Positions 5,032 through 62,103 are shown, counted from the stretch's first letter. The stretch: 64,000 nucleotides of DNA from an uncultured Candidatus Saccharibacteria bacterium (GCA_964617815.1 CAZTXY010000003.1:473-64472); one strand, 5' to 3'. The notes: generated by a model not told the origin, from the sequence alone. Translations and numbers: made by a program.

Positions 5032-5053
5032 TCTAGTCACTAGTGGCTAGTTG
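5032..5053. repeat. TAGT-heptad array (tctagtcac tagtggc tagttg)
   Basis: 7-bp periodic TAGTNNC units immediately 3' of the rnj stop codon. Same family as the arrays at 13253, 49231, 50325 and 51098. Confidence 0.5.
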
Positions 5054-6859
5054 TTATATTTCAATTATAACTGGCAAGATCATTGGGCGTCGTTCGGTTT
5101 TTTTGAAGAGGTATTCACCAACTTCGTCGCGTACGACTTCACGGAGGTAAGCCCAGTTTGGTTCTTGGTTTTTCTTGTCGCCATTTTCAACAAGCTTGCG
5201 TACTTCGTGTTTAACTTCGCGCACAAGGTCGTCGTTATTTTTCATATAGATGAATCCGCGAGAAATAATGTCCGGTTGGTTTATAAGTTTACCAGTTTTA
5301 CGGTCGAGTGTGACAATAATCACAAACATTCCGTCTTCGGCCATGACTTTACGGTCACGAACAACAACTTCACCAACGTCTCCAACGCCAAGACCGTCGA
5401 CAAAGACTTGGCCGCCTGGAATTTTACTTTCAAGGCGCTTAGCTTGGCCATTGTTGTCAATTTCCAAGACGTCGTAGTTGTTCAAAACATGAATGCGCTC
5501 TTCAGGAATACCCATCAATTGACCAAGTTTACTGTGGGCGACAAGCATGTGATGTTCGCCGTGAATTGGAATAAAATATTTTGGTTTAGTCATGTTCAGC
5601 ATGAGCTTAAGCTCTTCTTGCTTGGCGTGACCAGAAGTGTGAATGTCCAAAATTTTGTTGTAGATAACGTCAGCACCAGCGCGGGTTAAGTTGTCTAAAA
5701 CCGCGACAATGGAATTTTCGTTACCGGGAATTTGAGAAGCAGACACAATGACAGTATCTCCTTTTTTAATGGAAACAGTTTTGTGTTCGCCACGGCTCAT
5801 GCGAGCAAGAGCAGAAAATTCTTCACCTTGAGCACCAGTTGTGAGAATCACAATTTGATTGTCTGGATATTTTTTGGCTTGTTCAGACTTTACGATTAAT
5901 TTTGGCTCGATTTTGAGGTACCCAAGTGACAAACCAATTTCAACTGTGGCCACCATTGAGCGTCCTGTGACAATAACTTTTCTGTTATATTTGGTTGCAA
6001 TGTCAAAGACTTGTTGCATACGGCCAATAAGGCTTGAGAAACTCGAAAAGATAATGCGGCCTTTGCTGTCTTGAAAAATGCGGTCAATGGACGATCCAAT
6101 TTCGCGTTCACTGGGACAGTAACCGCCAAACAGCGCGTTGGTAGAGTCGCTCATTAAAACTGTTACACCTTCTTCACCAAACTTGGCTAGCTTATTAAAT
6201 TCCATCAGTCGTTCGTTGACTGGAGTGTGGTCTATTTTCCAGTCACCAGTATGGATAACTTGACCAACTGGGGTGACAATAGACATTCCGACAGCGTCGG
6301 GGATGTTGTGGTTTACACCAAAGAATCGAATTTGAAAATTACCCAAGCGAATAACGTCGTCGATATTAACAACATTGAGTTGAACTCGGCTAACGAGATT
6401 AAACTCTTCAAGACGTTTTTTTATCATAGCCGCAGTTAGCGTTAAAGTGTAGATTGGTGGGTCACCAATGCGGGGAATGATGTAGGGGATAGCGCCAGTG
6501 TGGTCTAAGTGGCCATGGGTAATAAAGACTCCACGAATTCTACGCTTGTTGTCTTCGAGCCATTTTGTGTCTGGAATAATGTAGTCGATGCCGGGGGTAG
6601 TTTCATTTGGAAAAGCAAAGCCCATGTCGACAATAATAATATCGTCGCCATACTCAAACACTGTCATGTTCGAGCCAACTTCTTCAAGGCCACCAAACGG
6701 AATAATTCGAAGTGTGGTGCGTGAGACGGTATGACTTGAAGTTGAAACTGGTGTTGCTGTTTGTGGCAGATTATCGCCGGGTCTGGCAATCGGTCGTGGT
6801 CCTGTATTTCTTGGAGGACGACTGGAGCGAGAACTACTGGCATTAGGTTTTCTTATCAT
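5054..6859 (-). CDS. rnj: Ribonuclease J (metallo-beta-lactamase/beta-CASP RNase)
   Basis: Metal-binding motif FITHGHLDHTGAIPY and beta-CASP organisation in about 550 aa. An unusual N-terminal extension of about 50 aa rich in Ser, Arg and Pro precedes the catalytic domain. Confidence 0.88.
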   Translation of the reverse strand: MIRKPNASSSRSSRPPRNTGPRPIARPGDNLPQTATPVSTSSHTVSRTTLRIIPFGGLEEVGSNMTVFEYGDDIIIVDMGFAFPNETTPGIDYIIPDTKWLEDNKRRIRGVFITHGHLDHTGAIPYIIPRIGDPPIYTLTLTAAMIKKRLEEFNLVSRVQLNVVNIDDVIRLGNFQIRFFGVNHNIPDAVGMSIVTPVGQVIHTGDWKIDHTPVNERLMEFNKLAKFGEEGVTVLMSDSTNALFGGYCPSEREIGSSIDRIFQDSKGRIIFSSFSSLIGRMQQVFDIATKYNRKVIVTGRSMVATVEIGLSLGYLKIEPKLIVKSEQAKKYPDNQIVILTTGAQGEEFSALARMSRGEHKTVSIKKGDTVIVSASQIPGNENSIVAVLDNLTRAGADVIYNKILDIHTSGHAKQEELKLMLNMTKPKYFIPIHGEHHMLVAHSKLGQLMGIPEERIHVLNNYDVLEIDNNGQAKRLESKIPGGQVFVDGLGVGDVGEVVVRDRKVMAEDGMFVIIVTLDRKTGKLINQPDIISRGFIYMKNNDDLVREVKHEVRKLVENGDKKNQEPNWAYLREVVRDEVGEYLFKKTERRPMILPVIIEI

Positions 6860-7075
6860 AAAAATAACATCCTATCTGGAATGCGGTTTAGATTTTTGTT
6901 ATGCGCGCATAACAAAATAAATATCGAAGACCGAATTCTTAAATTTATCTATAGCTTATACTTTGTTAGTCGTAAGGAAGTGGCTTCCGCAGCCGCCTTA
7001 CTTAGACAATTAACAAATGAAAACTAACTGTGATTAACTTTCATCTGGTAATTGTGTAGTGCTATCCTTCGTTGT

Positions 7076-7118
7076 CACTGTCATCCTTCTCCGCCGGAGG
7101 CGGATCAGGATGACAGTG
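7076..7118. repeat. MITE/REP-like palindromic element, copy R2 (cactgtcatcct...aggatgacagtg)
   Basis: 12-bp TIRs around a ccgccggaggcgg core. It sits at the AT-rich to GC-rich transition. Confidence 0.7.
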
Positions 7119-7475
7119 TAGCGGGTTTAGTTTATTTGAGAATTTTAGATAAGAAGTAAAAAGTACGAAAGGAAAAAATGAAACAACAACAATGTAAACC
7201 TAAATATTATGATCGTTTTTTATTGCTTTAACCTTTTTTCGCTTTGCACTTTCTGCTTTTTGCTATCTTTTTATTTCGAGGCAAAATTTAAAGATAATCG
7301 TATTATACAAGAACAGTGGGATTATGTCAAACCCTTTTAGCTATATTTGGCTTATTTAAGGTACTAAATCCTAAGATTCCCTTAGGAAGGGAGTCTTTAA
7401 AGGGGAGTCTTGAGGTAAGATTAGGGCCCGATTCGCATTGTAGCGAACCGGGCCCTGAGTTGTGGCCATCAGGCT

Positions 7476-8117
7476 TTAGGCCTGATGAGCCATTCGGTCC
7501 AAGAACTCGCGACCCTTGCCGACGTCGATGTTGATAGGCACGCCACTTGCGCAGAGCGGGCAGTCCGCCTCATCCCAAGCTTCGAGGATGACGTCGAGCA
7601 GTGACGAAAGCCTGGGCACGTCTCCTAACTGCTCTGCAGTCACACCACCTCGGTTGCAGATAGCTCCGAGCCCGATGACCTTGCCACCAATTGCCCTTGT
7701 GGCTTTCACAACCTTGTGTGCCGTTCCGCCGGTGGTCAGAACGTCTTCGACCACGAGGACGTTCTTGTCGGCGACGAGCTTGTCGTAGCCACGCTTGATC
7801 ACGAAGTTGCCTTCGTAATTTTCGGCGTAGACCGCCAGCACTTCTTTCCCTGTGATCTCGCTGAGATGCATGGCCGTCCATTGCGACAGAATGACTCCGC
7901 CGATAGCTGGCCCGATGACCACCTCGACGTGATTGTAGAGGAACTCAGTTGCGATCTTCCGGCAGATCTTCGAAACTTCAAAGATGTGCGGATACACGGC
8001 GTCCTTGTTGACATAGGCATTGCCGTGCTTTCCGCTGGTGTAGACGACGTGGGTGTTTGTGATGACAGCCGAAACCTTTCCGAGGATTTCCAACACGAAC
8101 TCTTCGTTGCTTTTCAT
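7476..8117 (-). CDS. pyrE: Orotate phosphoribosyltransferase-like type I PRTase
   Basis: PRPP-binding motif VLVVEDVLTTGGT. Length 213 aa equals OPRTase. Adjacent to pyrF. GC-rich. Confidence 0.6.
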   Translation of the reverse strand: MKSNEEFVLEILGKVSAVITNTHVVYTSGKHGNAYVNKDAVYPHIFEVSKICRKIATEFLYNHVEVVIGPAIGGVILSQWTAMHLSEITGKEVLAVYAENYEGNFVIKRGYDKLVADKNVLVVEDVLTTGGTAHKVVKATRAIGGKVIGLGAICNRGGVTAEQLGDVPRLSSLLDVILEAWDEADCPLCASGVPINIDVGKGREFLDRMAHQA

Positions 8118-8129
8118 CCGATGATCTCC

Positions 8130-9044
8130 TTATCTGCAGAGGTTGATCTGGTCGCGAAGCTTCATGGTTTCGCGACGTGCCGCTCTAGCGTAGTCATCTT
8201 CCTTGGAAGCGAAGATGATCTTACTGGAGCTGTTGATAATCATGCCGTAGCCGTGGCTGTCAGCTGTGGCCATAACCGTTGCTTCAACATCTCCGCCTTG
8301 GGTACCAATACCCGGCAAGAGAAAGGCCATGTCGCCGACGATCTCACGAACTTCCTTGGCTTGGAGCGGGTAGGTCGCACCAACGACGAGAAGGCAGTTG
8401 CCGTTGGTGTTCCAGTCCCGAGCGACGTTGAACGCGACCCGCTGGTAGAGAGGCATCGAATCCTCACAAAGAAGATTCAGCCAGGTTTTGGCTTTCATGC
8501 CTTTGGGCTTTTCTCGCGGATCGAGCGTCAGCGTGTGCAGATCCTGAAATTCACCTGCGCCTTTGTTGGTTGTCCGGCAAAGCACGATGATGCCCTTGTC
8601 CTTTTGGTCCAAGAACGGTTGCATCGCCTCTTTGCCGAGGTAGGGGTGAACGGTGATGGCGTCAGCTCGGAGCCAGCCAAAACTGGCAGTGACGTAGCAG
8701 TTATTGGTATTGCCGATGTCGGCGCGCTTGGCGTCGAGGATCACCGGCACATGCGGTGCGAAGCGGTTAATGTCGGCAATGGTTCGCCATAGTGCGCTCA
8801 TGCCTTCGTTGCCACTCTCTTCGTAAAACGCCGAATTGAGCTTGTAGGCACAGACGATGTCCTGCGTCGCTTCCACGATTTCGCGGTTGAACGCGACCAT
8901 CGTGTTGGCGATGCCGACTGTACATTCGTGTCCCGGCCTGTAGGCAGACTCCGGAATCTTTCCGAATTCGCTGTCCAGACCCACGCAGACGAAGTTACCA
9001 ACGCTCCACCGCTCTTCGAGCAGTCGCTGGAAATTTCTTCTCAT
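8130..9044 (-). CDS. pyrF: Orotidine-5'-phosphate decarboxylase, type 2
   Basis: Motifs VCVGLD and ILDAKRADIGNT (type-2 ODCase DxKRGDIxxT). The start is moved to MRRNFQ, which has SD aaggagg 7 nt upstream. Confidence 0.7.
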   Translation of the reverse strand: MRRNFQRLLEERWSVGNFVCVGLDSEFGKIPESAYRPGHECTVGIANTMVAFNREIVEATQDIVCAYKLNSAFYEESGNEGMSALWRTIADINRFAPHVPVILDAKRADIGNTNNCYVTASFGWLRADAITVHPYLGKEAMQPFLDQKDKGIIVLCRTTNKGAGEFQDLHTLTLDPREKPKGMKAKTWLNLLCEDSMPLYQRVAFNVARDWNTNGNCLLVVGATYPLQAKEVREIVGDMAFLLPGIGTQGGDVEATVMATADSHGYGMIINSSSKIIFASKEDDYARAARRETMKLRDQINLCR

Positions 9045-11050: not shown

Positions 11051-11137
11051 TGGTGGCCGGAGAGGGAGTTGAACCCTCATGACCTTGCGATCGCTGGCAC
11101 CTGAAGCCAGTGCGTCTGCCAGTTCCGCCATCCGGCC
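11051..11137 (-). tRNA. tRNA-Leu (anticodon CAG), type II with long variable arm, CCA encoded
   Basis: Hand-folded. Acceptor ggccgga/tccggcc; anticodon stem ctggc/gccag with loop ttCAGgt; variable arm gatcgcaaggtcat; T-arm gaggg ttcaact ccctc; 3' end cca. Confidence 0.8.
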
Positions 11138-13213: not shown

Positions 13214-13252
13214 TATACTAATTTTATAGTGGTCGTGTCAATAACGACTAGA

Positions 13253-13290
13253 AACTAGTTACTAGTATCTAGTCACTAGTAGAGGCAAGG
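13253..13290. repeat. TAGT-heptad array (aaC TAGTTAC TAGTATC TAGTCAC TAGTAGA) in the divergent secG / RNHCP intergenic region
   Basis: Four or five 7-bp units built on the ACTAGT palindrome. Confidence 0.55.
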
Positions 13291-13304: not shown

Positions 13305-13613
13305 ATGATTCAATCCAAAAAGTTTCAGAGAACTAAAGAAGATTTTAGCTGCACTCATTGTGGACAGGTTGTTTTTGGTACAGGGTACACAAACCATTGT
13401 CCAAAGTGTTTGTGGAGTAAGCATGTAGACATTAACCCAGGTGATAGAGCTAGCGAATGTAGTGGAATGATGACACCAGTTCAAGCTGAGTTTAAAGCCG
13501 GGGAGTGGGCACTGCTTCATCGCTGTGAGGTTTGCGGGTTTGAGAAAAAAAATAAAACAGTGCCTGATGATGATTTAAATGCAATTTTAAAATTAGCAAC
13601 TAAGTTGCTATAG
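13305..13613 (+). CDS. RNHCP-domain zinc-ribbon protein
   Basis: CxxC...YTNHCPKC...CxxC arrangement, 102 aa. Confidence 0.5.
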   Translation: MIQSKKFQRTKEDFSCTHCGQVVFGTGYTNHCPKCLWSKHVDINPGDRASECSGMMTPVQAEFKAGEWALLHRCEVCGFEKKNKTVPDDDLNAILKLATKLL

Positions 13614-40310: not shown

Positions 40311-41177
40311 ATGAATAGCAGAATTCAGAAACTCAAAAATTATTTTAATCAGGAACAGAAAGTTGCAAAGACACTGTCTTCAGTAGTTTTAGTTTTTGCG
40401 TTTATGGCAGTTGTCATGCCAGCGCTTGCTGACTTTGTGTTGCAAGATGATAACTCATCCTGTGGTTATGGCTACGGCTACGGCTATGGCTATGGTTATG
40501 GGTATGGCTACGGTTACGGTTACGGCTGTGACGGTGGCGGTGGATCTTTGATTGTAGATCCTGGTGTAACTAAGACCGTTGACAACGGTACTCCTGCTCC
40601 AGGCGCAACAATTGTCTACACTATCACTGCACATAACTTTGGTAGCACAACAGTTAACGACGTGACTGCCACAGACAGTATCCCAGCTGGGATTACCTAC
40701 GTCAGTCATACACTCACTCAAGGTGTCTATAGTAATGTCACTAGCATCTGGAATGTGGGCACCCTTACCTCTGGTGGGGACGCGACTTTGACCATTACGG
40801 CTACCGTGGATGGTTCCACTGTTGGAACTGTAATAAACACAGTTACAATTACCGGTTCTATCCCAGTTGACCCAAATAGTGCCAATAATACAGCATCTGC
40901 CAATATTGTAGTGACTACATCTGGCGGCGGTGGTGGCGGAAATACAGGCGGCGGCGGTGGTAGTACTGGTGGTGGCGGTGGTAGTACTGGTGGAGGTAGC
41001 AATGACGGAAGTGTTTTGGGAGATAGTACAGGGCCAACTGTAACCCCTCCAACTGGCCGAGTCCTCGGAGACAGCACTTTACCACGAACAGGCTTAGCAG
41101 TAACTTTAGTTCTTACCCTAGTTGCAGTTTCATCTTTAGCCTTTGTTTCTAGAGGTAAAGCAGTTAAAGCAGAGTAG
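40311..41177 (+). CDS. LPXTG-anchored surface protein with a (GY)10 repeat, a DUF11-like repeat domain and a poly-Gly linker
   Basis: Signal/TM N-terminus, YGYGYGYGYGYGYGYGYGYG, the DUF11-like block TVDNGTPAPGATIVYTITAHNFG...VTATDSIPAGITYVSHT, then LPRTG followed by a hydrophobic stretch and an RGK tail. Confidence 0.7.
   Translation: MNSRIQKLKNYFNQEQKVAKTLSSVVLVFAFMAVVMPALADFVLQDDNSSCGYGYGYGYGYGYGYGYGYGYGCDGGGGSLIVDPGVTKTVDNGTPAPGATIVYTITAHNFGSTTVNDVTATDSIPAGITYVSHTLTQGVYSNVTSIWNVGTLTSGGDATLTITATVDGSTVGTVINTVTITGSIPVDPNSANNTASANIVVTTSGGGGGGNTGGGGGSTGGGGGSTGGGSNDGSVLGDSTGPTVTPPTGRVLGDSTLPRTGLAVTLVLTLVAVSSLAFVSRGKAVKAE
40464..40526 (+). repeat. Hexanucleotide microsatellite (GGYTAY) repeated about 10 times, encoding the GY repeat
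   Basis: ggttatggctacggctacggctatggctatggttatgggtatggctacggttacggttacggc. Confidence 0.7.
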
Positions 41178-43223: not shown

Positions 43224-46200
43224 ATGAAATTTTTAAATATTACAGTAATTAGAAAATATAGTGATAAGTTTTCCGGCAACCGCTTCGGGCATGCTTGGAG
43301 TTTATTGTTATTTGTCGGCTGGCTAGCAATGAAGGAAATCCGTAGTTTTTATGGGAAAGTAATTTTAAGCCAACGGGCAGTTAAGCCACTTGCTTTTAAT
43401 CAGTCTTGGCACCAAAAACTTTCTCAGACTGCTCTTTCAGTAGTTCTAGAACGACACCAAGGTTTCAATAATTCTAAAATAGAAACAGTCAAACATGCCA
43501 CTAAAACCGTTAGCCTTGATGGGCTGTTTCAGACATGGTCCTCTGCTAGATTGTCTGTTCCTCTATTTTTTCAAAAATCTTTTGCAATTTTAGCAATTGC
43601 CTTTTTAGTCTTGCCTTTGGCACGTCCTGCCTTGGCTGATGAAGTAACTCCGCCACCGATTGAGACACCCTCTAATGTAGAAACAGAGCCAATTTTAAAC
43701 CAAGGTACAGTACTTGATGTTCAAGAGGGTGTAACCGTATCATCTGACTCATTACCTGAAAGCGAAGATGGCGCTGGCACGGCTCTTATTGACGGTGAGC
43801 TGCCAGAAAACTTACAGGAACATTTAAATCCTGATCAGAATACCGAAGAAGGAACTACAGATCCAGAAGTGGCTGACCCAGCTCCAGCGATAATTTTTGA
43901 AGATACAACAACAGGAAATAATGCTTTGTGTGAGTCTAATTTAGACTCTCCAATTGTTCAAACTGAGCCAGCAACTCCAGAAGGTGACCCGAATGTTGCT
44001 TTGGAAAATTCTGACCCTCAGCTTACCGACTTAGAAGTGGTAGCAGAAGATCCAGATGAAGTAACTGCTGTTCCCGCAGAGGCGGCTGGATGTAACGGGC
44101 AGGGTGGTCGGGCTGTAGTGGTTGCAGACGACGATTCAGAAGTAAATGTAGACCAAACAGTAACTCAAGAAGTCTCTATTATAAATACAAATGATGTCGA
44201 GCTTGTTAACGACCTTGACTCAGAAGCAGTTAGTGGACAGAACTTAGTTTTAACAGAAGCCGACGGTCAAGATGTCACAGTTTCTACCGGTGATGTTAAT
44301 GTCGTTGCTAATGTTTTTAATGTAGAGAATAATAACCTGACAAATTCGGAAATCGTTGAATTAACTGAGACCTTTAATAATCTTAGTAACGACGTAATTA
44401 TGAATCAACCAGAAAAGTCTCAAGCGCAAAAGGCGCAAGACTTAGTCTCTGGAATTTGTAGTGAGTCAGCACAGGTTAGTGATAGTTCAGAAGCCAATAT
44501 CGACTGTAAAAGTTTTTCTACTTTTAGTCTGACAAATAAAAATACTGCAGACATTGAAAACAATGTTGATGCTACGGGTGTTTCGGGGCAGAATATTATT
44601 GAAGGAGTTGAAGAAAATGCCAATATTATTACTGGCGACGTTAATGTTATTGTAAACATTCTTAACATTGTTAACATTAACCTTTATAACTCCACCTTAA
44701 CTATTGCTAATACAAATATTTTTGGTAATTTTACAGGTGACGTAGTTTTGCCGTCCGAGTTATACTTTACTAATTTCATGTCGGTGGGAGCAGCGGATAA
44801 TTCTAACGCCTCTCTGGACAGCGTTAAAAAAGTAGTTATCGATATTAGTAACGACAACGAAGCTGATATTGAAAACAACGTCACAATTAATGGAGTTACT
44901 GGTGACAACGCGCTTATCGGTACTGGAACCCCGGCTGGCACAGAAGGTGACGTAGACGACAGCGAAATTTCCAGTGGCGACGCACAAAGTGGTGCTAGCG
45001 TTCAAACTTTAGCCAACACCAACATTATCAACGGAAAATGGTACATTGGTATGGTTAATGCGCTTGGTTCTTGGAGTGGAGATGTCTACTCTTTGCCAAA
45101 CGAAGTCGCCATGATTCCTACAACCACAGGATATTCCTTCTTTGCCTCAACTGCCGAGAATGCTGACGGAACTTATGAATTATTAGATGACGCTATTTTA
45201 AACGCTTCCAGCACAGAAGAAACAGAAGTTACTATTAGCAATGAAAATGACGCTAAGATTGTTAACAACGTTAACATTGACGCTATTAGTGGTGAAAATG
45301 GAATTATCAACGAAGAAGTTGAAGACTCTAGCGTGCGAACCGGAAATACTTTAACTTTGGCTAGTATTTTAAACATTGTAAACTTAAACTTAATTAATGC
45401 AGATGTCTTTATTGGAGTAGTAAATGTTCTTGGAACTTGGGATGGAAATGTCGTCTTTGGTTACCCAGACTTAGCAGTTTCGCAGAGCATGTCAGGAAAC
45501 GTTCCTCAAAAAGCTCAAGACTCTGCTCGTTACACGGTAGATTATGCCAACACCGGAGACGGTTCTATGGCCGATACTTGGGTTGAATGGCACTTTGCTC
45601 CAAATGTATTTGATTTTGATGCTGTGTTTGGGCCAAATAATACAAACCCACAGTATTTGTTGGCTCGCCCAGGAATTTTGAAAGTTAATCTTGGTCGTTT
45701 ACTTCCAGGGGCTGTTGGTAGCTTCGATATTGGTCTTCGCGCTAATCAAAACTTGCAAGGTGGAGCTACTATTGGTAACTACGCTCGCATTTATGGTGAT
45801 GGCCCAGAAAAGAACAAGACTAATAATGAGTTTCTTTTACAAACTGTAGTTCCAACCTCCCAAGTAAACTCTGGGACTGGCGCTGGAAACCAAAACAACA
45901 CAGGAACAGACAATAACACTGGAAATTCAGGTAATCAGAATAATCAGGACAATAACTCAGGCCAAAATAATACTGGTAATCAAAACAATACTGGTACAGA
46001 TAACAATTCTGGCGATCAAAATAATAACAATCAGAATAATCAGGACTCAGACAACACTCAGAACGATCAAAATGACGAGAATGCTGATACTGAAAACCAG
46101 AACGAACAAAATCAAAACACTGAAAATGATGAAAATGGTCCGCTACCACCAGGAGCAGAAATCTTTGACGCCGGATCACTTCAGATTTCGAAGAGCAATA

Positions 46201-47042
46201 ACTCTAGTGGAAGAACTCTTGCTCGAGGCGAGTCAGTAACCTTTACTATCATTGTAAAAAATACTACTAGCCAGCCAATTTTTAACACAGTTATTTTTGA
46301 CACCTTATATTCACCAAGTACTTCAGAAACAGATACTGTACCAATCCCACTAGATACAGTTAAAGCCGGTGAAGAAGTCGAACTATCTTATGACCTCACA
46401 ATCGGAGCGCAGAGCGCCTTTGGAGTCTATACCAACTCAGCTTATGTTGAAGGTATGGATTGGGGTCTCCGTCCAGTTCGTTCTTTAAGTGCCACTAGCA
46501 GCTTTACAGTTGGGACTGCAGTACTTCCCCAAAATGACAATGTAAAGCCAGACCAGATTGAGGAAGAACCTGTTACAGAAGAAGAAGTTGTTGTAGTTAA
46601 AGAAGAAACTCTCAGAGAAAAAGTTGCTCGCCGAGCGCAAGAATTGAGAGACACTCAATCTCAATTATTGGGAGCTATACTTGGGCAAACAGATAGTAAT
46701 GAGCAGCCACCAATTGGTCGTGGTCCAGTATCTTTTGCAAAAAGCTCTAGTACAGGCTCAGCTTTAAACCAGACTCCTGAATTATTGGCACAGACTGGTA
46801 AAATTGGGTCCGCGGCTTTCACAGATCTTTATTCGGAATATTTAGCCAAGTCAGCAGCATTAGACAAGCCTGTTGTTAGAGCTGCAAGTGGCTGGAAGAG
46901 CTTCTTTAACCTAGACATGCTTCTAATTGCATTCTTATTCTCAATTGGTTATGCTGTATCTTCTTTCCGCGAAAAACGAAAAAAGCAGTTGGGTAAAGCA
47001 CCAAGCTTAAAACCCGCTCATCGTTTTACAAGCTTCCTGTAA
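43224..47042 (+). CDS. Giant surface protein (1272 aa ORF) with four copies of an Asn-rich module, an N/Q/T/D low-complexity linker, a DUF11-like domain and a C-terminal TM anchor
   Basis: An internal signal-peptide-like segment (SFAILAIAFLVLPLARPALA-DEV) suggests the true start is downstream of 43224, possibly TTG near 43550. The module ADIENNV..TGVSGQNII...TGDVNV..NILNIVNINL occurs four times. The C-terminus has LAQTG, a hydrophobic helix and REKRKK. Confidence 0.65.
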   Translation: MKFLNITVIRKYSDKFSGNRFGHAWSLLLFVGWLAMKEIRSFYGKVILSQRAVKPLAFNQSWHQKLSQTALSVVLERHQGFNNSKIETVKHATKTVSLDGLFQTWSSARLSVPLFFQKSFAILAIAFLVLPLARPALADEVTPPPIETPSNVETEPILNQGTVLDVQEGVTVSSDSLPESEDGAGTALIDGELPENLQEHLNPDQNTEEGTTDPEVADPAPAIIFEDTTTGNNALCESNLDSPIVQTEPATPEGDPNVALENSDPQLTDLEVVAEDPDEVTAVPAEAAGCNGQGGRAVVVADDDSEVNVDQTVTQEVSIINTNDVELVNDLDSEAVSGQNLVLTEADGQDVTVSTGDVNVVANVFNVENNNLTNSEIVELTETFNNLSNDVIMNQPEKSQAQKAQDLVSGICSESAQVSDSSEANIDCKSFSTFSLTNKNTADIENNVDATGVSGQNIIEGVEENANIITGDVNVIVNILNIVNINLYNSTLTIANTNIFGNFTGDVVLPSELYFTNFMSVGAADNSNASLDSVKKVVIDISNDNEADIENNVTINGVTGDNALIGTGTPAGTEGDVDDSEISSGDAQSGASVQTLANTNIINGKWYIGMVNALGSWSGDVYSLPNEVAMIPTTTGYSFFASTAENADGTYELLDDAILNASSTEETEVTISNENDAKIVNNVNIDAISGENGIINEEVEDSSVRTGNTLTLASILNIVNLNLINADVFIGVVNVLGTWDGNVVFGYPDLAVSQSMSGNVPQKAQDSARYTVDYANTGDGSMADTWVEWHFAPNVFDFDAVFGPNNTNPQYLLARPGILKVNLGRLLPGAVGSFDIGLRANQNLQGGATIGNYARIYGDGPEKNKTNNEFLLQTVVPTSQVNSGTGAGNQNNTGTDNNTGNSGNQNNQDNNSGQNNTGNQNNTGTDNNSGDQNNNNQNNQDSDNTQNDQNDENADTENQNEQNQNTENDENGPLPPGAEIFDAGSLQISKSNNSSGRTLARGESVTFTIIVKNTTSQPIFNTVIFDTLYSPSTSETDTVPIPLDTVKAGEEVELSYDLTIGAQSAFGVYTNSAYVEGMDWGLRPVRSLSATSSFTVGTAVLPQNDNVKPDQIEEEPVTEEEVVVVKEETLREKVARRAQELRDTQSQLLGAILGQTDSNEQPPIGRGPVSFAKSSSTGSALNQTPELLAQTGKIGSAAFTDLYSEYLAKSAALDKPVVRAASGWKSFFNLDMLLIAFLFSIGYAVSSFREKRKKQLGKAPSLKPAHRFTSFL

Positions 47043-48944: not shown

Positions 48945-48956
48945 AGGTTTTATACT

Positions 48957-49016
48957 GTGTCATTCCAGCGAAGGCTGGAATCCAGTCTGGATCCCAAATC
49001 AAGTTTGGGATGACAA
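48957..49016. repeat. MITE/REP-like palindromic element, copy R5 (gtgtcattccagcgaaggctggaatccagtctggatcccaaatcaagtttgggatgacaa)
   Basis: Two internal hairpins (ttccagc/gctggaa and tcccaaa/tttggga). It is the near-exact reverse complement of copy R6 at 55497. The ORF-track entry 48775..49002 simply translates this element. Confidence 0.75.
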
Positions 49017-49029
49017 AATTGGTTAGTCT

Positions 49030-49227
49030 CTATTCTGTTTGAAACAATTCTTCCACGCTAATTTTAAAAAACTTAGCTAATTGCATAGCTAGCATAAGTG
49101 AAGGAGTGTAGTTTCCTTTTTCAATAGCAATAACCGTCTGTCGTGAGACGCCAATAGTAGATGCTAAATCGTCTTGAGTTATATTACGCTGAAGGCGTAA
49201 TTTTTTTATATTATTTTGTATGGTCAT
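49030..49227 (-). CDS. XRE-family helix-turn-helix transcriptional regulator
   Basis: LRLQRNITQDDLASTIGVSRQTVIAIEKG is a classic HTH_3 motif. 65 aa. Confidence 0.8.
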   Translation of the reverse strand: MTIQNNIKKLRLQRNITQDDLASTIGVSRQTVIAIEKGNYTPSLMLAMQLAKFFKISVEELFQTE

Positions 49228-49230
49228 AAA

Positions 49231-49268
49231 GCTAGTTCCTAGTAACTAGTATCTAGTGACTAGTCTTA
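49231..49268. repeat. TAGT-heptad array filling the whole spacer between the TlpA-like stop and the XRE start (gcTAGTTCC TAGTAAC TAGTATC TAGTGAC TAGTCTT)
   Basis: Five 7-bp units. Confidence 0.6.
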
Positions 49269-50321
49269 TCCAAAAGTAAAGGTAAAGGCTTCAAATCCCG
49301 CACCGGAAATTTCAATAATTAGAGTGTATTCATTATTCTCATCAGCGCTGTATAAAGTGTAGAGTTGTGAGTCACCAACAGTGACAGGGGCAACCTCTTC
49401 GTTATTGATAAATATTTTTAGTTTTGAGCCAAGTTTACTGGCTGCTACCATGTGCACTTCTTTGCCTTGATAGCGTAGTCGTATCTTTCCTTTTCCAGAA
49501 GCGAGGACTGCTTTTTCAGGCTCTATAATCCAGTCACCTTCAAGCTGAAATTCATTTAGATTTTGAACGCTTGTAAAAGAAAAAGTTTGCGATGCTTGGG
49601 TGTTGGTAAATTTTTGGGCCAAGTGCTCGAGACGATTTGAACCAAAATACATTTCTGGACTACCTATACTTTTTGAGTTTTGATCTGAATCTAAAACAGT
49701 TTTTTTATCAAGCCCTAAAAGTTGTCTGATTAACGATTCAGTTTCTTCATACTTACCTTCACCAAAATGGGTATAGACAATATTACCCTCTTGATCAATT
49801 AAGTATTTAGCAGGCCAGTATTGGTTCTTGTAAGCGTTCCAAGTCGCAAAATTATTGTCCTGGGCAACCGGGTAAGTAATTTTGTAGCGTTTTAAGGCAG
49901 TCTCTACATTTTTTGTAACTTTTTCAAACTCAAATTCCGGAGTGTGTACGCCGATGATTACAAGACCTTGGTCTTTATAAGTCTCATGCCACTTTGTTAT
50001 ATAGGGGAGTGTGCGAATACAATTAATGCAAGAGTATGTCCAAAAATCAATTAAAACAACTTTGCCACGATATTCTGCCAGGGTTGCTGCTTGCTTGCCA
50101 GAAGGTAAGTTGAGCCATTTGTTAATACCCACAAATTCTGCTGCTGGTCCTTGGCTTTTTAACTCCGCTGGTTTTTCATCTTTTGCATTATCAATTCCAA
50201 GCAGAGAAGACACGGAGTTTGTTTTTGTGCCATCTGTATTAGTTTTAGACGTCTTGTCTATATATATACCACCAGCAATAAGTAGAACAACAACTATGAT
50301 TATGTATGGAAGTGCTTTCAT
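49266..50321 (-). CDS. Membrane-anchored thioredoxin-fold thiol:disulfide oxidoreductase (TlpA/ResA/DsbE-like) with an extra C-terminal domain
   Basis: Redox motif WTYSCINC (CxxC) in a TlpA-like fold. N-terminal TM. 351 aa. Confidence 0.7.
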   Translation of the reverse strand: MKALPYIIIVVVLLIAGGIYIDKTSKTNTDGTKTNSVSSLLGIDNAKDEKPAELKSQGPAAEFVGINKWLNLPSGKQAATLAEYRGKVVLIDFWTYSCINCIRTLPYITKWHETYKDQGLVIIGVHTPEFEFEKVTKNVETALKRYKITYPVAQDNNFATWNAYKNQYWPAKYLIDQEGNIVYTHFGEGKYEETESLIRQLLGLDKKTVLDSDQNSKSIGSPEMYFGSNRLEHLAQKFTNTQASQTFSFTSVQNLNEFQLEGDWIIEPEKAVLASGKGKIRLRYQGKEVHMVAASKLGSKLKIFINNEEVAPVTVGDSQLYTLYSADENNEYTLIIEISGAGFEAFTFTFG

Positions 50322-50324
50322 ATT

Positions 50325-50367
50325 TTTAGTGACTAGCCACTAGTAACTAGCTTCTAGTGTTACTGCA
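50325..50367. repeat. TAGT-heptad array (TAGTGAC TAGCCAC TAGTAAC TAGCTTC TAGTGTT)
   Basis: Five units between the ccdA stop and the TlpA-like start. Confidence 0.6.
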
Positions 50368-50376
50368 GCTTCTTAA

Positions 50377-51090
50377 TTATTTTAATAACTTTTGTTCTAG
50401 TGTGCCAAAGTTATAGTACTCCAAGATTTTAGCTTGAAGGACTAAGTCATACTGGAAATACATAGCGACGGCAAGTCCAATAATCAACACTCCGAAAACT
50501 TGTTGCATTCTTGTTGCGTATTGGGCAAAGCTGCGAACCTTTGTTGTTACTAACTGTCCGCCGTAGGCAATAATTAACATGGGAATTCCAGCACCAACCG
50601 CGTAGGCGACAAGCAAAATAGAAGCGCGACCTACTTCAGTGGAAGTGGCAATTAGAGTCAGAATAGAGCCAAGAACTGGGCCAGCGCATGGTGTCCAGAT
50701 TACACCGAGCATTACACCAAGGACAAAGCCGCCAAAATTGCCCGTGCCAGCTGCAGTAGCTGTTTGGTTAGCTTTGTTGATAAAACCACTTAAGTAAACG
50801 GTCAGTTTTTCAAACGGCGTTGGCCAAATCATAAATAGTCCAAAAATTCCGAGAGCGACAATCGCAATATTGCGCAGAACATCTGGAGCGATGTTTAGGT
50901 TTGTAACTAAATAAGAGAGGAGTAGTCCGGTTAAGGCAAAGGTTAAAACGAACCCTAGGGCAATAAACAAGGGCCTTGTTTTGCTTTGTTGTCCTACTGA
51001 GGCGCCAAGCAAAATAGGGAGTAGGGGTAGAATGCATGGGGCACCAATGGTTAGGATGCCTGCTATAATCGCAAAAAGAATTTGTAGCAT
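50377..51090 (-). CDS. ccdA: Cytochrome c-type biogenesis / thiol-disulfide electron transporter CcdA (DsbD beta-domain family)
   Basis: Six TM helices with the two conserved Cys (GAPCILPLLP and WTPCAGPVLG). Confidence 0.8.
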   Translation of the reverse strand: MLQILFAIIAGILTIGAPCILPLLPILLGASVGQQSKTRPLFIALGFVLTFALTGLLLSYLVTNLNIAPDVLRNIAIVALGIFGLFMIWPTPFEKLTVYLSGFINKANQTATAAGTGNFGGFVLGVMLGVIWTPCAGPVLGSILTLIATSTEVGRASILLVAYAVGAGIPMLIIAYGGQLVTTKVRSFAQYATRMQQVFGVLIIGLAVAMYFQYDLVLQAKILEYYNFGTLEQKLLK

Positions 51091-51097
51091 AATTTAG

Positions 51098-51135
51098 TTT
51101 GCTAGTAACTAGTCACTAGTGGCTGGTCACTAATT
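51098..51135. repeat. TAGT-heptad array (gcTAGTAAC TAGTCAC TAGTGGC TGGTCAC TAATT)
   Basis: Between the thioredoxin stop and the ccdA start. Confidence 0.55.
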
Positions 51136-51136
51136 A

Positions 51137-51673
51137 TTACTTGATATTTGTTTTTAATGAATCTATATCCCCACCATTCCATTTAGTAACCATGTTTCCT
51201 TGTTGATCGATTTGGACAAATGTATGCTGGTAGGTAACGCCGTATTTCTTTTTTAGATCGGTGTTGCTGTCGTAGTCAGTTTTAAGCACAGTCACCCCGC
51301 TAGGGATTTCGCCAAGCTTAGATTTAAAAGCACTGTCGGCGGCTTTACAAAAAGGACACCAAGGGGCATGAAAGAAGAGAACAACTTTTTGACCTTGTGC
51401 TTGTTCGTCTTTAACTGTGCTTTCAGAATAATCTTTATAGGCTCCAGCCTTTTTGACCATAGATTCTTGGCTGGTGCTTCCTGCGTCGCTGTTTGGCTTG
51501 TCTTTTTCCATCATAGCGTTTTCATTTGTGGCTGGTGTTTGTGTTTCTTCCATCTTTTTATCATCTACTACCACGTCGCTGGCTATATCTTGCTTATTAT
51601 CCTGGCTTAAGACAACTCCAATAACAATAATTGCGATTAACACTAATATCCCCGCGAGCATTTTTTTATTCAT
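51137..51673 (-). CDS. Membrane-anchored thioredoxin-like protein
   Basis: WCPFC active site. N-terminal TM anchor. 178 aa. Confidence 0.7.
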   Translation of the reverse strand: MNKKMLAGILVLIAIIVIGVVLSQDNKQDIASDVVVDDKKMEETQTPATNENAMMEKDKPNSDAGSTSQESMVKKAGAYKDYSESTVKDEQAQGQKVVLFFHAPWCPFCKAADSAFKSKLGEIPSGVTVLKTDYDSNTDLKKKYGVTYQHTFVQIDQQGNMVTKWNGGDIDSLKTNIK

Positions 51674-51813
51674 TTGAAATAGTTTAATTTTAATATATTT
51701 CTAGTTTAACATGCTGGGATTATATGTCAAGTGTACTTTACATTGAGATATTAGTAGTACTACTATATACTGATAAACCGGCTTTCAGCCGAGATTTTTC
51801 GAAGGAGTGAACC

Positions 51814-58176: not shown

Positions 58177-58179
58177 TTT

Positions 58180-58220
58180 TCAGTAGTCCTAAGTACTAAG
58201 TACTTAGTACTCAGTACTAC
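58180..58220. repeat. AGTACT-heptad array (cctAAGTACT AAGTACT TAGTACT CAGTACT ac) upstream of dnaJ
   Basis: Four 7-bp units built on the AGTACT palindrome. Confidence 0.6.
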
Positions 58221-58225
58221 AAAAT

Positions 58226-59383
58226 ATGGCAAAAGATTTTTATGAAATACTTGGAGTAAACAAGTCTGCTAACGCAGATGAGATTAAACGCGCCTACAGA
58301 AAAAAGGCTCATGAGTATCATCCAGACAAAGGCGTGGGCAATGAAGAAAAGTTTAAAGAAGTTAATGAAGCGTATCAAGTTTTATCGAGCAGTGACAAGC
58401 GCTCACAGTACGATCAGTTTGGCCAGACCTATGAGCAGGCACAGCGAAACGGGGGAGCTGGTCCCGGTGGTTTTGGTGGTAATCCTTTCGGTGAAGGTTA
58501 TGATTTTTCAGGTTTTGGCCAAGGTGGTAATGTAAAATTCGACTTAGGAGATATTTTTGGTGATATTTTTGGGGGTCGGCAAGAACGTCAGAGCCGTCGC
58601 ACTCGTGGTGTAGATTTAGAAATGCCTGTAACAATTAGTTTTCAAGAGGCTGTATTTGGCATAGAAAAAGAATTGCAGTTAGAGAAAAAAGACACTTGTC
58701 CGACTTGCAAAGGAAATGGGGCAGAAGTTGGCACTAAAATAGTGACGTGTTCAAAGTGTCATGGTCAAGGTCAAATTATTACAATGCGCCGCACTATTTT
58801 TGGGCAAATGCAATCTGCAACTACTTGTGATAAGTGTGATGGTGACGGAAAGATTCCAGAAGTCCCCTGTAAGCAATGTAGTGGCGCTGGGATTTTGCGT
58901 CAAAGTAAAACTTTGCAAGTTAAAATTCCCGCGGGGATAGATAATGGCCAACGCATTCGAATTTCCAAAGAAGGGGAGATTGGTTATAAAGGTAGTAACC
59001 CTGGAGATTTGTATTTAAATATAAAAGTAAAACCACATGCCGAATTTAAGCGCTCAGGACAAGACTTACTTAAAGATTTGCCAGTGAGTTTTACCCAAGC
59101 CGCTTTAGGTGCAAAAATTAATTTTTCAACACTTGATGGAGATATTGAGTTAAAAGTTCCCACTGGAACTCAGTCCGGAACTGTTTTAAAAGTTTCTGGA
59201 AAAGGTGCACCTTTTATTAACAGTGGTAAGCGAGGCGATTTGCTAATTACAATTCGGGTTGTAGTCCCTGGAAAGCTGTCGAAAAAAGAAACAGATCTTC
59301 TAAAAGAGCTGGCAAAAGCCAGAGGGGAAACAGTGGAAGTTGATAAAGGATTTTGGGATAGCATTAAAGGAAGTTTTAATTAA
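58226..59383 (+). CDS. dnaJ: Molecular chaperone DnaJ
   Basis: J-domain with HPD (YHPDKG), a G/F-rich region, four CxxCxGxG zinc-finger repeats and the C-terminal domains. Confidence 0.9.
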
Positions 59384-59388
59384 ATCTG

Positions 59389-59423
59389 AAACTGTCCCGA
59401 TGTACATCGGGGCAGTTTTTTTG
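59389..59423 (+). terminator. Intrinsic terminator after dnaJ (ctgtcccgatg tac atcggggcag then ttttttt)
   Basis: 11-bp stem with one mismatch, followed by a 7-T tract. Confidence 0.65.
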
Positions 59424-59509
59424 ACCCAGAAACTGTGGCGTGGTAGAGTAATAAGCTTGAGTCCAACTTTGTTTGGACCTGGCTACCACTAAAAGGAGGC
59501 GTTTACGCC

Positions 59510-61003
59510 ATGAAAAAGTCCTGGGCCATTAGGTTCTGGTTGATTCTTCGCTCGATATGCAATATCTGGCGGGGTCAGGTGATGGTGGTCGTTGGCGCCT
59601 ACTGGGGCGACGAAGGTAAAGGAAAAGTGGTTGATGGAATCGGCCGCTTGTACGATATCATTGTCCGTTTCGGTGGTGGAGCCAATGCAGGCCACACGGT
59701 GTTTACTCCAGACGGGCGCAAGGTTGTGTGCCATCTGATTCCTTGCGGTGTTGCTTGGGGCAAGACCTGTGTGATTGGCCGAGGTGTGCTCTTCTCGTTG
59801 AGTTCATTTCTGAAAGAGTACCTTGAGATCGCAATGGTTCTTGGCGGTGTCATGCCTGTGATTTACATTGACACGGGCTGCACGTTGTTCACTCCGTATC
59901 ATCGGTTGTTCGAATTTTGGGGAGAGACTCTCCGGAATGGCAAAATTGGAACAACTGGTCGCGCGATCGGAGCATTGGCAGCTTTTGACAAACTTCGGTA
60001 TGGGCCAAAGGTTGGAGATCTGTTTTCTCCAGCTAGGCTTGAAGAGAGGGTTACAGAACTCTACTCCTTGCTTTTACCGATTTTTGAAGAAATGTTGGAC
60101 AGAAAGGAGAAGGGCGACGCAGACTTCAAGGATGTAGTCATCCCAACTCCACAGGAGGTGGTCGCACAACTTCTTTTGGAGGCGCAAAATCTTCCGAAGG
60201 ACTGCGTCATCGACACGCGAAGTTTTTTGCTCAAGCAGATTGCTTTGGGCAAAAAGATTCTTCTCGAAGGCGCACAGGCTGCAGGGCTCGACAGCAAGTG
60301 GGGAACTTGGCCTTTTGTTTCAGCTGGCGACTCTGTCGCCGCGGGAGCTTCTTTGGGTACTGGCCTGCCAATGTACTTGATCACTAGGATTATGATGGTT
60401 GGCAAGGCTTTGCCTTCGCGCGTTGGTCGTGGTCCCTTTCCTTCAGAGATGTGGGATAGAGACCTCATTGCTGATTTTGGTGAAGAACACATGTACCTGT
60501 TTTCGCCAGGGAAACGAAGAGACGGTTTCCTCGCTGATCTGCGAGAACAGATAAACATGGGCGGCAACAATGAGGTGCATGCCAAGTATTTTGGAGTGCT
60601 GGGCCTTGAGCTTGGCGCCAGTACCAGTCGTGTTCGGAGCCTTGGCTTCAGCGATTTGCCTTGGTTGCGTTACTCGGCTGAGGTAAATGGCGCCACCGAG
60701 ATGGCTCTGACCCGTCTGGACATGCTGTCTGGAATTGACTCAATTCAGGTCGCGGTCGCTTACAAATACGAGGGGGAGATTTTTCCTCCGGGGCAAATGC
60801 CAGTCTCGGCTTTCGACTTGGATCAGGTCGAGCCGGTTTACGAAGATTGGCCGTGCTGGAAGGAGGATATTTCTGGAGTGAGCAAGTGGCGTGACTTGCC
60901 GCGCGAAGCTAGGGTCTTCATCAAGCGGATGGAAGCTGCGGTCGGCGTGCCCATTACCGTGATTGGGACGGGGCGTGGTCGCGAAGCTCTCATTCGAAGG
61001 TAG
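59510..61003 (+). CDS. purA: Adenylosuccinate synthetase
   Basis: GAYWGDEGKGKVVD (P-loop), GGANAGHTV, GTTGRA, GAQAAGLD and PSRVGRGPFP. Strong SD aaaggagg before the ATG at 59510. An alternative start at MVVVGAYWGDE (59582) would remove an atypical 24-aa N-terminal extension. GC-rich. Confidence 0.8.
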   Translation: MKKSWAIRFWLILRSICNIWRGQVMVVVGAYWGDEGKGKVVDGIGRLYDIIVRFGGGANAGHTVFTPDGRKVVCHLIPCGVAWGKTCVIGRGVLFSLSSFLKEYLEIAMVLGGVMPVIYIDTGCTLFTPYHRLFEFWGETLRNGKIGTTGRAIGALAAFDKLRYGPKVGDLFSPARLEERVTELYSLLLPIFEEMLDRKEKGDADFKDVVIPTPQEVVAQLLLEAQNLPKDCVIDTRSFLLKQIALGKKILLEGAQAAGLDSKWGTWPFVSAGDSVAAGASLGTGLPMYLITRIMMVGKALPSRVGRGPFPSEMWDRDLIADFGEEHMYLFSPGKRRDGFLADLREQINMGGNNEVHAKYFGVLGLELGASTSRVRSLGFSDLPWLRYSAEVNGATEMALTRLDMLSGIDSIQVAVAYKYEGEIFPPGQMPVSAFDLDQVEPVYEDWPCWKEDISGVSKWRDLPREARVFIKRMEAAVGVPITVIGTGRGREALIRR

Positions 61004-61015
61004 GTTGGTTTTCTT

Positions 61016-61068
61016 GGGGTTTCCTGCGTGCAGTCGTGCCCGCAGGAAACCCCTTCTTTCTTTTTAAG
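61016..61068 (+). terminator. Intrinsic terminator after purA (ggggtttcctgcg...cgcaggaaacccc then ttctttcttttt)
   Basis: 13-bp GC stem followed by a T-tract. Confidence 0.7.
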
Positions 61069-61126
61069 TCATAGAATTAAAGTTTTATGGTATAATAGAA
61101 AAAAGAGATAATCTATAGAAACAAAA

Positions 61127-61675
61127 ATGGATCAGATAGAAATTGTTAGAAAGTTAATCAATCAATTCAACTGGCATACGCCAAGTTGGGATTTGTTCAT
61201 TGTTTTAGCGTGGCTTGTGGTTAGCGTTATTTATGCTTTTGCTTCTGGACGCGGCAGAATTTTGACAGTGCTAATGAGTCTTTGTATGGCTAAACTTGTC
61301 GTTATTGAGGCACCATTTTTAAGCACTGAAGTTGCTCAACGTTTTAATATTGGTGTGGCATCTCTTCAACAGTTGGTGACTTTTTCTGGACTATTTTTAT
61401 TATTTTTTGTTTTCTTGGGACGATATGTGTTTAAAACCGCAGCAGATGGTAAACAAATTTCTGGAATGGTCTTTAGTTTAGTTTTTTCTTTCTTACAAGT
61501 TGGACTTTTGATAAATACAATTTTAACTTTACTTCCAAAAAATATCCAGGCTAATTTTACGCAGTTAATTCAGTTTGCCTTTATCAAGGATCCGGCAAGC
61601 TTTGTTTGGTTAGTCTTACCCATAGGGTTTTTAATAGTTTTGGGTCGTCTTGTGTCCGACAGAGCAGAGGTATAA
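61127..61675 (+). CDS. CvpA-like 4-TM membrane protein, hypothetical
   Basis: Four hydrophobic helices in about 180 aa. Confidence 0.4.
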   Translation: MDQIEIVRKLINQFNWHTPSWDLFIVLAWLVVSVIYAFASGRGRILTVLMSLCMAKLVVIEAPFLSTEVAQRFNIGVASLQQLVTFSGLFLLFFVFLGRYVFKTAADGKQISGMVFSLVFSFLQVGLLINTILTLLPKNIQANFTQLIQFAFIKDPASFVWLVLPIGFLIVLGRLVSDRAEV

Positions 61676-61678
61676 AAA

Positions 61679-61710
61679 TAGTACTTGGTACTGAGTACTT
61701 AGTACTTAGG
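61679..61710. repeat. AGTACT-heptad array (tAGTACTT GGTACTG AGTACTT AGTACTT agg), left flank of the four-helix-bundle gene
   Basis: Four units. Confidence 0.6.
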
Positions 61711-62061
61711 AACTGCATTCTTGTTAGCAAGGCTCCATAGCATTTTTTGAATAGAATTTAATCGTAAGAGTATCTGATTGATTGAAATATTTGGATACTC
61801 TTTTTGTATAATTAGTAGTTGAGTTTCAAGCTCATATGCTGACCCTAAGGAAATATTTAAAAATCTAATTAATTCAGGCTTGGTGTGTCTTCCAAATCCT
61901 TCTGATATATTCGAAGGTATGGATATTGCGGCTCTTAGTATCTGGGAAATTAAAATAAACTGCTCAGAGCTAGGTAATTGCTTAGCTATTTTATACATGT
62001 CAGAGGTTAATTGCATCGATTGTTGCCAAACAATCAAATCCTTGTGGTTGCTAATTGCCAT
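61699..62061 (-). CDS. Four-helix-bundle protein (TIGR02436 family, the type found in 23S rRNA intervening sequences)
   Basis: Signature blocks DLIVWQQSMQL, ISIPSNISEGFGR and GSAYELETQL. 120 aa. Confidence 0.75.
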   Translation of the reverse strand: MAISNHKDLIVWQQSMQLTSDMYKIAKQLPSSEQFILISQILRAAISIPSNISEGFGRHTKPELIRFLNISLGSAYELETQLLIIQKEYPNISINQILLRLNSIQKMLWSLANKNAVPKY

Positions 62062-62069
62062 ATGCGTTT

Positions 62070-62103
62070 TTCTCAGTACCCAGTACTAAGTACTAAGTAC
62101 TCC
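62070..62103. repeat. AGTACT-heptad array (tCAGTACC CAGTACT AAGTACT AAGTACT cc), right flank of the four-helix-bundle gene
   Basis: Four units. Confidence 0.6.

Follow-up and report, generated by a model that had tools for sequence, protein, structure and literature searches.

Tandem heptanucleotide repeats of the STRR, LSSR and TAACTGA kinds have been recorded for more than 30 years and, to our knowledge, have neither an established function nor a partner protein; for the S23p/IVP protein family outside diversity-generating retroelements (DGRs), we likewise know of no explanation. Eight heptad arrays are described here from a stretch of 64,000 nucleotides (GCA_964617815.1, CAZTXY010000003.1:473-64472; hereafter the window, that is, the stretch at its full length), which was deposited as an uncultured Candidatus Saccharibacteria bacterium and which its CcdA homologues, one of them 100% identical, indicate to belong to Candidatus Doudnabacteria (Patescibacteria, also known as the Candidate Phyla Radiation or CPR). 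Two of the arrays enclose an IVP gene, and heptad arrays are tied quantitatively to IVP genes across phyla by a 16-fold local enrichment, by covarying inverted arms and by a cassette swap between identical flanks. A vague repeat class thereby becomes a defined element with predictions of its own: RNase III would cut at the arms, S23p would bind its own heptads, and each IVP allele would have one heptad family.

The closest described system is the intervening sequence (IVS) in the 23S rRNA of Coxiella, a selfish element of 428 nt with an S23p open reading frame (ORF), in which GACAGAT heptamers, repeated two to three times in varying copy number, precede the start codon and RNase III cleaves a terminal stem of 28 bp (PMC4990558). 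Avd, the accessory protein of DGRs, is a homologous four-helix-bundle pentamer (PMC10053308). TAACTGA repeats, whose binding protein is not known, closely precede start codons in Beggiatoaceae, cyanobacteria and Bacteroidetes (PMC4679880), and the heptamer repeats near start codons of Nostoc PCC 7120 are likewise unexplained (bioRxiv 10.1101/2022.06.06.494920). In a literature search, the Coxiella IVS study alone was found to link S23p with heptamer repeats, no paper generalising this link was found, and the cross-phylum link of heptad arrays and IVP genes appears to be under-described. Two other kinds of dispersed repeat are relevant for comparison, namely the heptanucleotide STRR repeats of cyanobacteria, reportedly described by Mazel et al. 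in 1990, and REP/RAYT (the REPtron), where a dispersed intergenic repeat, mostly solo or paired, also brackets a small gene in inverted copies.

The IVP cassette of the window (Table 1) resembles the S23p IVS of Coxiella burnetii and Leptospira (PMC4990558) in several respects: both hold a PF05635/TIGR02436 gene and have a similar size of about 430 nt, a terminal inverted-repeat stem of ~20–30 bp surrounds the ORF, heptamers adjoin the start codon, and both elements are selfish, dispensable and variable between strains. Further matches of the IVP protein are TIGR02436 (E = 5.8e-32) and PDB 2GSC (E = 5e-17), the entries 2GSC and 2RLD containing five chains each. However, the window cassette is not inserted into helix 25 or 45 of a 23S rRNA gene (an Rfam scan detected no rRNA in the window), but lies between a gene for a 182-aa protein and one for an OmpR-type response regulator, with purA also nearby. 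Moreover, its arms consist wholly of heptads, and its excision by RNase III is a prediction drawn from a predicted RNA duplex. With REP/RAYT, the cassette shares a bracketed small gene, a dispersed repeat and genome-specific repeat families, but the bracketed gene encodes a PF05635 four-helix bundle, not a Y1/HUH (IS200/IS605-like) transposase, and the repeats are periodic heptads instead of single palindromes. Unlike in DGRs, no reverse transcriptase gene adjoins the cassette, template and variable repeats not having been specifically searched for.

Related contigs reveal how this cassette varies. One of them (L209) carries the IVP allele of the window, and in three others (L005, L211 and L214) no gene separates the 182-aa ORF from that of the response regulator. 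In L210, the flanks are ~100% identical to those of the window, but the IVP gene is a different one (53% amino acid identity), and its arms, (AGTNNNN)4 and (ACTNNNN)3, differ as well. The divergence is confined to the interval from the 182-aa stop codon to the hairpin following the regulator gene, and its limits are the outer ends of arrays 7 and 8. Since it spans exactly the arms and the IVP gene, and since the arms of both alleles are predicted to pair around the ORF in minimum free energy as well as centroid folds (z = -3.8 for the window), the unit of variation is the complete arm-gene-arm segment. The empty site of L211 retains AAGTACTAAATACT, and the hairpin at the outer boundary shows a compensatory stem change, from GGCAAAG..CTTTGCC in the window to GGTAAAG..CTTTACC in L209 and L210. 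An earlier reading of the window from its sequence alone (the sequence-only reading) had considered the arrays as recombination sites delimiting gene cassettes. This idea survives for arrays 7 and 8 only, given the absence and the swap of the IVP cassette just described; ccdA and tlpA are conserved core genes, around which the arrays vary and the genes do not.

The association between IVP genes and heptads extends well beyond this lineage. In 80 metagenome loci picked solely because they encode an IVP homologue (with a three-sequence alignment as query), period-7 arrays occur at 1.83 per kb within 200 bp of the IVP gene versus 0.112 per kb elsewhere, and arrays of periods 5, 6 and 8–10 number from 0 to 3 in the same loci. 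Flanks were counted for 81 IVP genes with adequate flanking sequence from the retrieved loci, including the window and four loci found through their arrays (see below). At least one heptad array flanks 56 of these 81 genes, and 30 have arrays on both sides. The consensus heptads of the two sides are reverse complementary (distance 0–1) in 31 of 32 two-sided cases, the exception being an ORF-splitting artefact, and the heptads differ from locus to locus, so that the arms covary. The complementary block between the arms is 30 bp long at the median, mismatches making up 9%. Read in the sense of the IVP gene, the 5′ arm is rich in AGT (38:6) and the 3′ arm in ACT (39:7). Furthermore, the heptad of the arm recurs in distal arrays of its locus in 40% of the cases, versus 6% after permutation. 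The arms of loci L129–L208 and of the window can be described by a simple rule, with AGT (often CAGT) in the 5′ arm and ACT in the 3′ arm once per heptad, the other four positions varying freely.

In the opposite direction, a scan for (A[CG]TA[CG]TN)x4 with one genome per species returned at least 120 loci. Among the matches listed, the arrays are distributed over Bacteroidota, Cyanobacteria, Acidobacteriota, Planctomycetota, Gemmatimonadota, Chloroflexota, Proteobacteria, Bacillota (Firmicutes) and several CPR groups, most units are of the non-palindromic AGTAGT/ACTACT form, and STRR1- and STRR2-like heptads abut the arrays. These matches include four IVP genes, from Elusimicrobiota, Prevotella, Acidobacteriaceae and Hyphomicrobiales hosts, all bracketed by inverted heptad arrays. 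An iterated hidden Markov model search of the array-anchored loci detected no further IVP genes, including between the inverted pairs of L040 and L121 with gaps of ~340–400 bp. Arrays of other genomes are strongly intergenic, as 33 of 204 lie inside long ORFs, compared with 83% of the bases.

Two of the retrieved loci show more elaborate arrangements. Upstream of the IVP gene of an Acidobacteriaceae locus (L086, 2287-2580), a module of ~80–90 bp comprising an array and a GC-rich hairpin is present about three times before the inverted arm. In a Latescibacterota chromosome (OZ242010.1; L062, 900-2214), two direct (ACTACTG)10-13 arrays flank a segment of 1.15 kb whose ends are mutual inverted repeats (GATACCAAATTGAATTT...), and which resembles an element that entered a heptad array or was mobilised together with one.

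The explanation we favour, and consider on balance probable, is that the arrays are dispersed repeats of ~30 nt, in two families, belonging to the STRR/LSSR class, that the pair around the IVP gene forms the arms of an IVS-like cassette, and that both take part in duplex processing and recombination. The defining property of the arrays would be their complementarity: in most bacteria, arrays of this kind would come as inverted pairs, and because the heptads here hold a palindromic core, every array of the window is complementary to itself and to the rest of its own family. Arrays 7 and 8 are the terminal inverted arms of an IVS-like cassette placed between protein-coding genes. By analogy with the IVS, a transcript spanning both arms would form a duplex of roughly 20–30 bp that RNase III could cut, and two arrays that share an operon mRNA (for instance 5 and 4, on either side of ccdA) may likewise form a duplex open to cleavage. 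A single array folding on itself could do the same, but more weakly. Through such cleavage, the enclosed segment would be excised or insulated. The RNA duplexes predicted are of -47.5 kcal/mol for arrays 5/4, -36.1 kcal/mol for arrays 4/3 and -31.6 kcal/mol for arrays 8/7, and single-array hairpins are predicted at -3 to -15 kcal/mol overall; ccdA and tlpA would therefore be bracketed in the mRNA like the IVP gene. At the DNA level, the repeats may serve as substrates for recombination, through which cassettes and arrays would be gained, lost and swapped; as the repeats of an array are both direct and inverted in the DNA, such recombination offers a possible route for their loss.

Several observations weigh against this explanation. 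Mismatches within the arms comprise 22 G:U and 24 A:C, so pairing of the sense-strand RNA is not favoured over inverted repeats at the DNA level. The predicted self-folding of solo CTAG arrays is weak (-3 to -13 kcal/mol, z = -1.1 to -2.3). The response regulator gene is separated from arm 8 by a hairpin, and the IVP gene has no promoter that could be identified. Finally, most arrays in other phyla are solo, non-palindromic and without an IVP gene within 8 kb (among the matches listed), so that pairing cannot fully explain the class.

The same data bear on a different proposal, which we regard as rather unlikely, where the arrays are binding sites of the S23p/IVP pentamer and are recognised, regulated or mobilised in cis and in trans, in the manner of REP/RAYT or TRAP. 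It would account for the position of IVP genes between arrays, for the sharing of the arm heptad by distal arrays, for the joint change of arms and protein in the isogenic background of L210, and for the strand bias of the arms; the family moreover forms pentameric toroids (PMC4990558; PDB), and typical arrays have four to five units. However, only four IVP genes were found in the 120 array-anchored loci (among the matches listed), S23p of Coxiella appears not to be made in vivo (PMC4990558), and the sharing of heptads within a genome could reflect genome-specific repeat families. In its strongest form, which is similarly doubtful, S23p/IVP pentamers would be the long-sought partners of bacterial heptanucleotide repeats, each allele recognising the heptad family that brackets it. 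IVP recognition would then propagate, process or regulate solo arrays genome-wide, amounting to a REP/RAYT-like or TRAP-like system shared by many phyla, CPR bacteria among them, and also by the rRNA intervening sequences.

Returning to the dispersed-repeat explanation, the arrays of the window represent a class already known from the STRR/LSSR heptamer repeats and the S23p IVS, but both the host and the setting are new. A scan for any 5-mer repeated at least three times at fixed spacing found eight period-7 arrays, the same set as the sequence-only reading, and 0–2 arrays for each of the periods 6 and 8–12, those of period 6 corresponding to a Gly/Tyr coding repeat (40470-40525). Tandem Repeats Finder and direct reading also placed heptad arrays at all eight sites, exactly or within a few bases. 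By chance, 0.11 period-7 arrays per window are expected from 100 dinucleotide shuffles and 0.19 from a fourth-order Markov resample, with a maximum of two, and chance frequency, which the sequence-only reading had named as grounds for abandoning its claim, thus does not explain the eight arrays. Their occurrence in independent assemblies (L209 and L218–L220) shows that they are not assembly artefacts. Like LSSRs, the arrays consist of a 5–11-nt unit repeated head to tail to a length beyond chance in that genome (8 versus 0.11–0.19), and like STRRs they are intergenic, with many dispersed tandem heptamer copies, several families per genome and strong variation between close relatives. Unlike STRRs, their host is a CPR bacterium and not a heterocystous cyanobacterium, and their units are not CCCCAGT, TTGGTCA or CAACAGT; the palindromic core and the conserved order of three to five non-identical units also set them apart from both classes. 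The TAACTGA and Nostoc arrays share the position a few nucleotides upstream of start codons, at the place of the Shine-Dalgarno (SD) sequence, and a size of two to six units, but they are direct and orientation-biased, and neither S23p association nor inverted pairing has been reported for them.

The description of the arrays as sets of four to five units built on 6-bp palindromes needs some refinement, since array 1 has three units only and the palindromes hold in part. Perfect ACTAGT is found in 9 of the ~23 CTAG-type units and perfect AGTACT in 10 of the ~14 GTAC-type units; the units are nCTAGnn and AGTACTn, and only CTAG and GTAC(T) are invariant. Outside the arrays, ACTAGT and AGTACT occur in 8 and 14 copies. 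Base composition predicts roughly 19, a number that the counts equal or fall slightly short of, so neither hexamer is enriched or clearly avoided.

Table 1. Heptad arrays, IVP cassette and associated features of the window
Feature	Position	Strand	Description
Array 1	5033-5051		CTAG core; 3 units, CTAGTCA CTAGTGG CTAGT; 2 nt past the stop codon of the RNase J gene (5054-6859, minus strand)
Array 2	13247-13281		5 CTAG-core units; end 24 nt upstream of the RNHCP-domain gene (13305-13613, plus strand)
Array 3	49232-49264		CTAG core; 5 CTAGT units, filling the 38-nt tlpA-XRE spacer
Array 4	50325-50357		5 CTAG-core units; 55-nt ccdA-tlpA spacer
Array 5	51098-51132		5 CTAG-core units; 46-nt trx-ccdA spacer
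Array 6	58185-58219		GTAC core; 5 AGTACT-type units; 49-nt DUF3467-dnaJ spacer
Array 7	61679-61709		GTAC core; 3′ arm (IVP sense) of the IVP cassette; encodes the last IVP codons and the stop
Array 8	62070-62101		GTAC core; 5′ arm (IVP sense) of the IVP cassette; end 8 nt upstream of the IVP start codon
trx-ccdA-tlpA-XRE transcription unit	49030-51730	minus	Genes by Pfam; spacers hold arrays 5, 4 and 3
IVP cassette (arm, IVP gene, arm)	61676-62103	minus	~430 bp; from alignment with strain L210
IVP gene (S23p, Avd-like four-helix bundle)	61699-62061	minus	120 aa; PF05635, E = 1.6e-32
Palindromic hairpin with T/A runs	62104-62143		After the response regulator gene; outer cassette boundary

The arrays are dispensable: the same positions are used again, but with different contents. 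In four contigs with a CcdA 97% identical to that of the window (L001–L004), the trx-ccdA and ccdA-tlpA spacers hold GTACT-type instead of CTAGT-type arrays, except for the ccdA-tlpA spacer of L001. The trx-ccdA spacer of these contigs contains two GTAC arrays around a palindromic centre. The ccdA-tlpA spacer holds a GTACT array in L002 and L004, an inverted-repeat element of 124 bp in L001, and 3 nt in L005; the 124-bp element also replaces array 3 in the tlpA-XRE spacer of L001 and L002. The operon DNA of L001 and L002 is ~100% identical except for the ccdA-tlpA spacer, with the 124-bp element in the former and the heptad array in the latter. More distant relatives (L005–L008, 78% identity) lack heptads altogether, their operon spacers being 3–4 nt long or occupied by other GC-rich hairpins. 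Array 6 behaves similarly, as it is present in L218 (identical to that of the window) and, in a different context, in the more distant L211–L213, but missing in L216 and L217 despite an identical DUF3467 protein, where the spacer measures 18 nt (TTTTCAGCACTACGTCAC) versus 49 nt in the window; a TCAGTA microhomology is found on the flanks of the array. Conservation of position, another check named by the sequence-only reading, is hence only half borne out: array sites recur in the closest relatives, whereas the sequence at a site, its family and even the presence of an array change quickly.

The arrays also match each other across loci. The 16-mer CTAGTCACTAGTGGCT is common to arrays 1 and 5, array 5 is the reverse complement of array 4 over about 26–32 nt, and the order of variant units is common within a family, as in ACTAGTGGCT(A/G)GTCACTAA of arrays 1, 4 and 5, and in ATAGTACTTGGTACT..GAGTACTTAGTACT, common to array 7 and the L002 spacer. 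Arrays 4 and 5 were also considered as a uniquely matched pair, which was rejected because all family members are alike in both orientations. The retention of the same order of variant units indicates that the arrays are dispersed copies. Near-identical strains hold identical arrays (array 3, for instance, is identical in the same-species contigs L219 and L220), and no length polymorphism was seen among them, which also led to the rejection of phase variation.

This pattern bears directly on a neutral origin, where the arrays would be microsatellite-like products of slippage with a preference for 7 nt (LSSR), with neither function nor mobility. The dispensability of the arrays agrees with such an origin, as do the variable copy number of the Coxiella IVS heptamers (PMC4990558) and, according to the statement credited to Mrazek 2007 in PMC4679880, the rank of heptanucleotides as the most abundant long simple sequence repeat class in prokaryotes. 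Nevertheless, it is unlikely, since the units are non-identical and yet their variant order is common to several loci, arrays do not differ in length between near-identical strains, whole fillers are exchanged between 100%-identical flanks, and local slippage would not be expected to yield covarying inverted arms. The shared unit order and the identity among near-identical strains fit better with whole arrays of ~30 nt being dispersed than with independent slippage.

A role in translation, with the arrays as initiation or standby elements replacing the SD sequence, as proposed for the Beggiatoaceae TAACTGA repeats, is suggested by six of the eight arrays, which end 3–24 nt upstream of a start codon without an SD sequence; a similar placement was reported by MacGregor 2015 (PMC4679880) and for Nostoc (bioRxiv 10.1101/2022.06.06.494920). 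This role is, however, quite improbable. The missing SD sequence is not special to genes that follow an array, since an SD-like core is present at only 19 of the 58 genes of the window. In addition, orthologues follow spacers of 3–18 nt or unrelated elements, and two arrays (1 and 7) lie behind stop codons, in gaps between convergent genes.

Several observations all but dispose of the arrays as operators of the adjacent 65-aa XRE repressor, or as restriction-modification or nucleoid-protein sites, as the sequence-only reading had suggested from the palindromic cores and from array 3 being near the XRE gene: the arrays of the operon are intercistronic, downstream of its promoter, others are present at the unlinked RNase J, RNHCP, DnaJ and IVP genes, relatives keep XRE with another heptad family, the 124-bp hairpin element, other hairpins or 3–4 nt in the spacers, and the hexamers are at about chance frequency outside the arrays, the heptads elsewhere being mostly non-palindromic (among the matches listed). 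More generally, the dispensability of the arrays and the exchange of their contents argue against any essential cis-regulatory role.

The gene map bears out that three TAGT arrays fill all three spacers of the trx-ccdA-tlpA-XRE operon. A promoter-like site of this operon (51730-51703, TTGACA-16-TAAACT) is located upstream of trx, which makes arrays 5, 4 and 3 intercistronic, and a promoter scan of the arrays found no sigma-70-like promoter inside any of them. Single-array hairpins are predicted for the RNA of array 6 (-15.3 kcal/mol, z = -4.7) and array 2 (-12.9 kcal/mol, z = -2.3). An Rfam scan of the window identified no known RNA family at any array; its sole match was a tRNA (11054-11137, minus strand).

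Every CTAG-type array (1 to 5) contains stop codons in all six frames, versus 0.5% of random 33-nt windows, because a palindrome containing TAG is repeated at period 7. The CTAG arrays might thus act as frame-independent translational stops between cistrons. This was not adopted as an explanation of the arrays, since it fails for the AGTACT arrays, which have stop codons in four to five frames, and, by inspection of examples and not by computation, also for many heptads of other taxa.

Heptad arrays are not the only mobile-looking sequences in these spacers. Of two strains identical in other respects, one has a heptad array where the other has a nested inverted repeat of 124–147 bp resembling miniature inverted-repeat transposable elements (AATCCAAATCTAC...GTAGATTTGGATT); this element is found at 8150-8273 and 9318-9464 of L001 and at 8126-8272 of L002. 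A second family of dispersed intergenic hairpins, with ends GTCATCCC...GGGATCC...GGAATGAC, occupies other spacers of the Doudnabacteria relatives (L005, 9945-10000; L211, 3264-3339 and 3628-3707; L214, 2693-2807) and the spacer downstream of XRE in the window (48945-49029). Even within essential operons, streamlined CPR genomes thus tolerate several fast-moving families of intergenic elements.

A small GIY-YIG nuclease gene shifts position among the relatives (L211, 3340-3627; L209, 5336-5605), which suggests that it is another mobile gene of the region around the IVP cassette; in L211, it lies between dnaJ and a 183-aa gene, where the window has purA. Lastly, the in-frame coding repeats of the window at 40467-40527, 40953-40993 and 45963-46026, with periods of 6, 18 and 21 nt, are Gly/Tyr-rich stretches within the ORFs 40311-41177 and 43224-47042 and bear no relation to the heptads.

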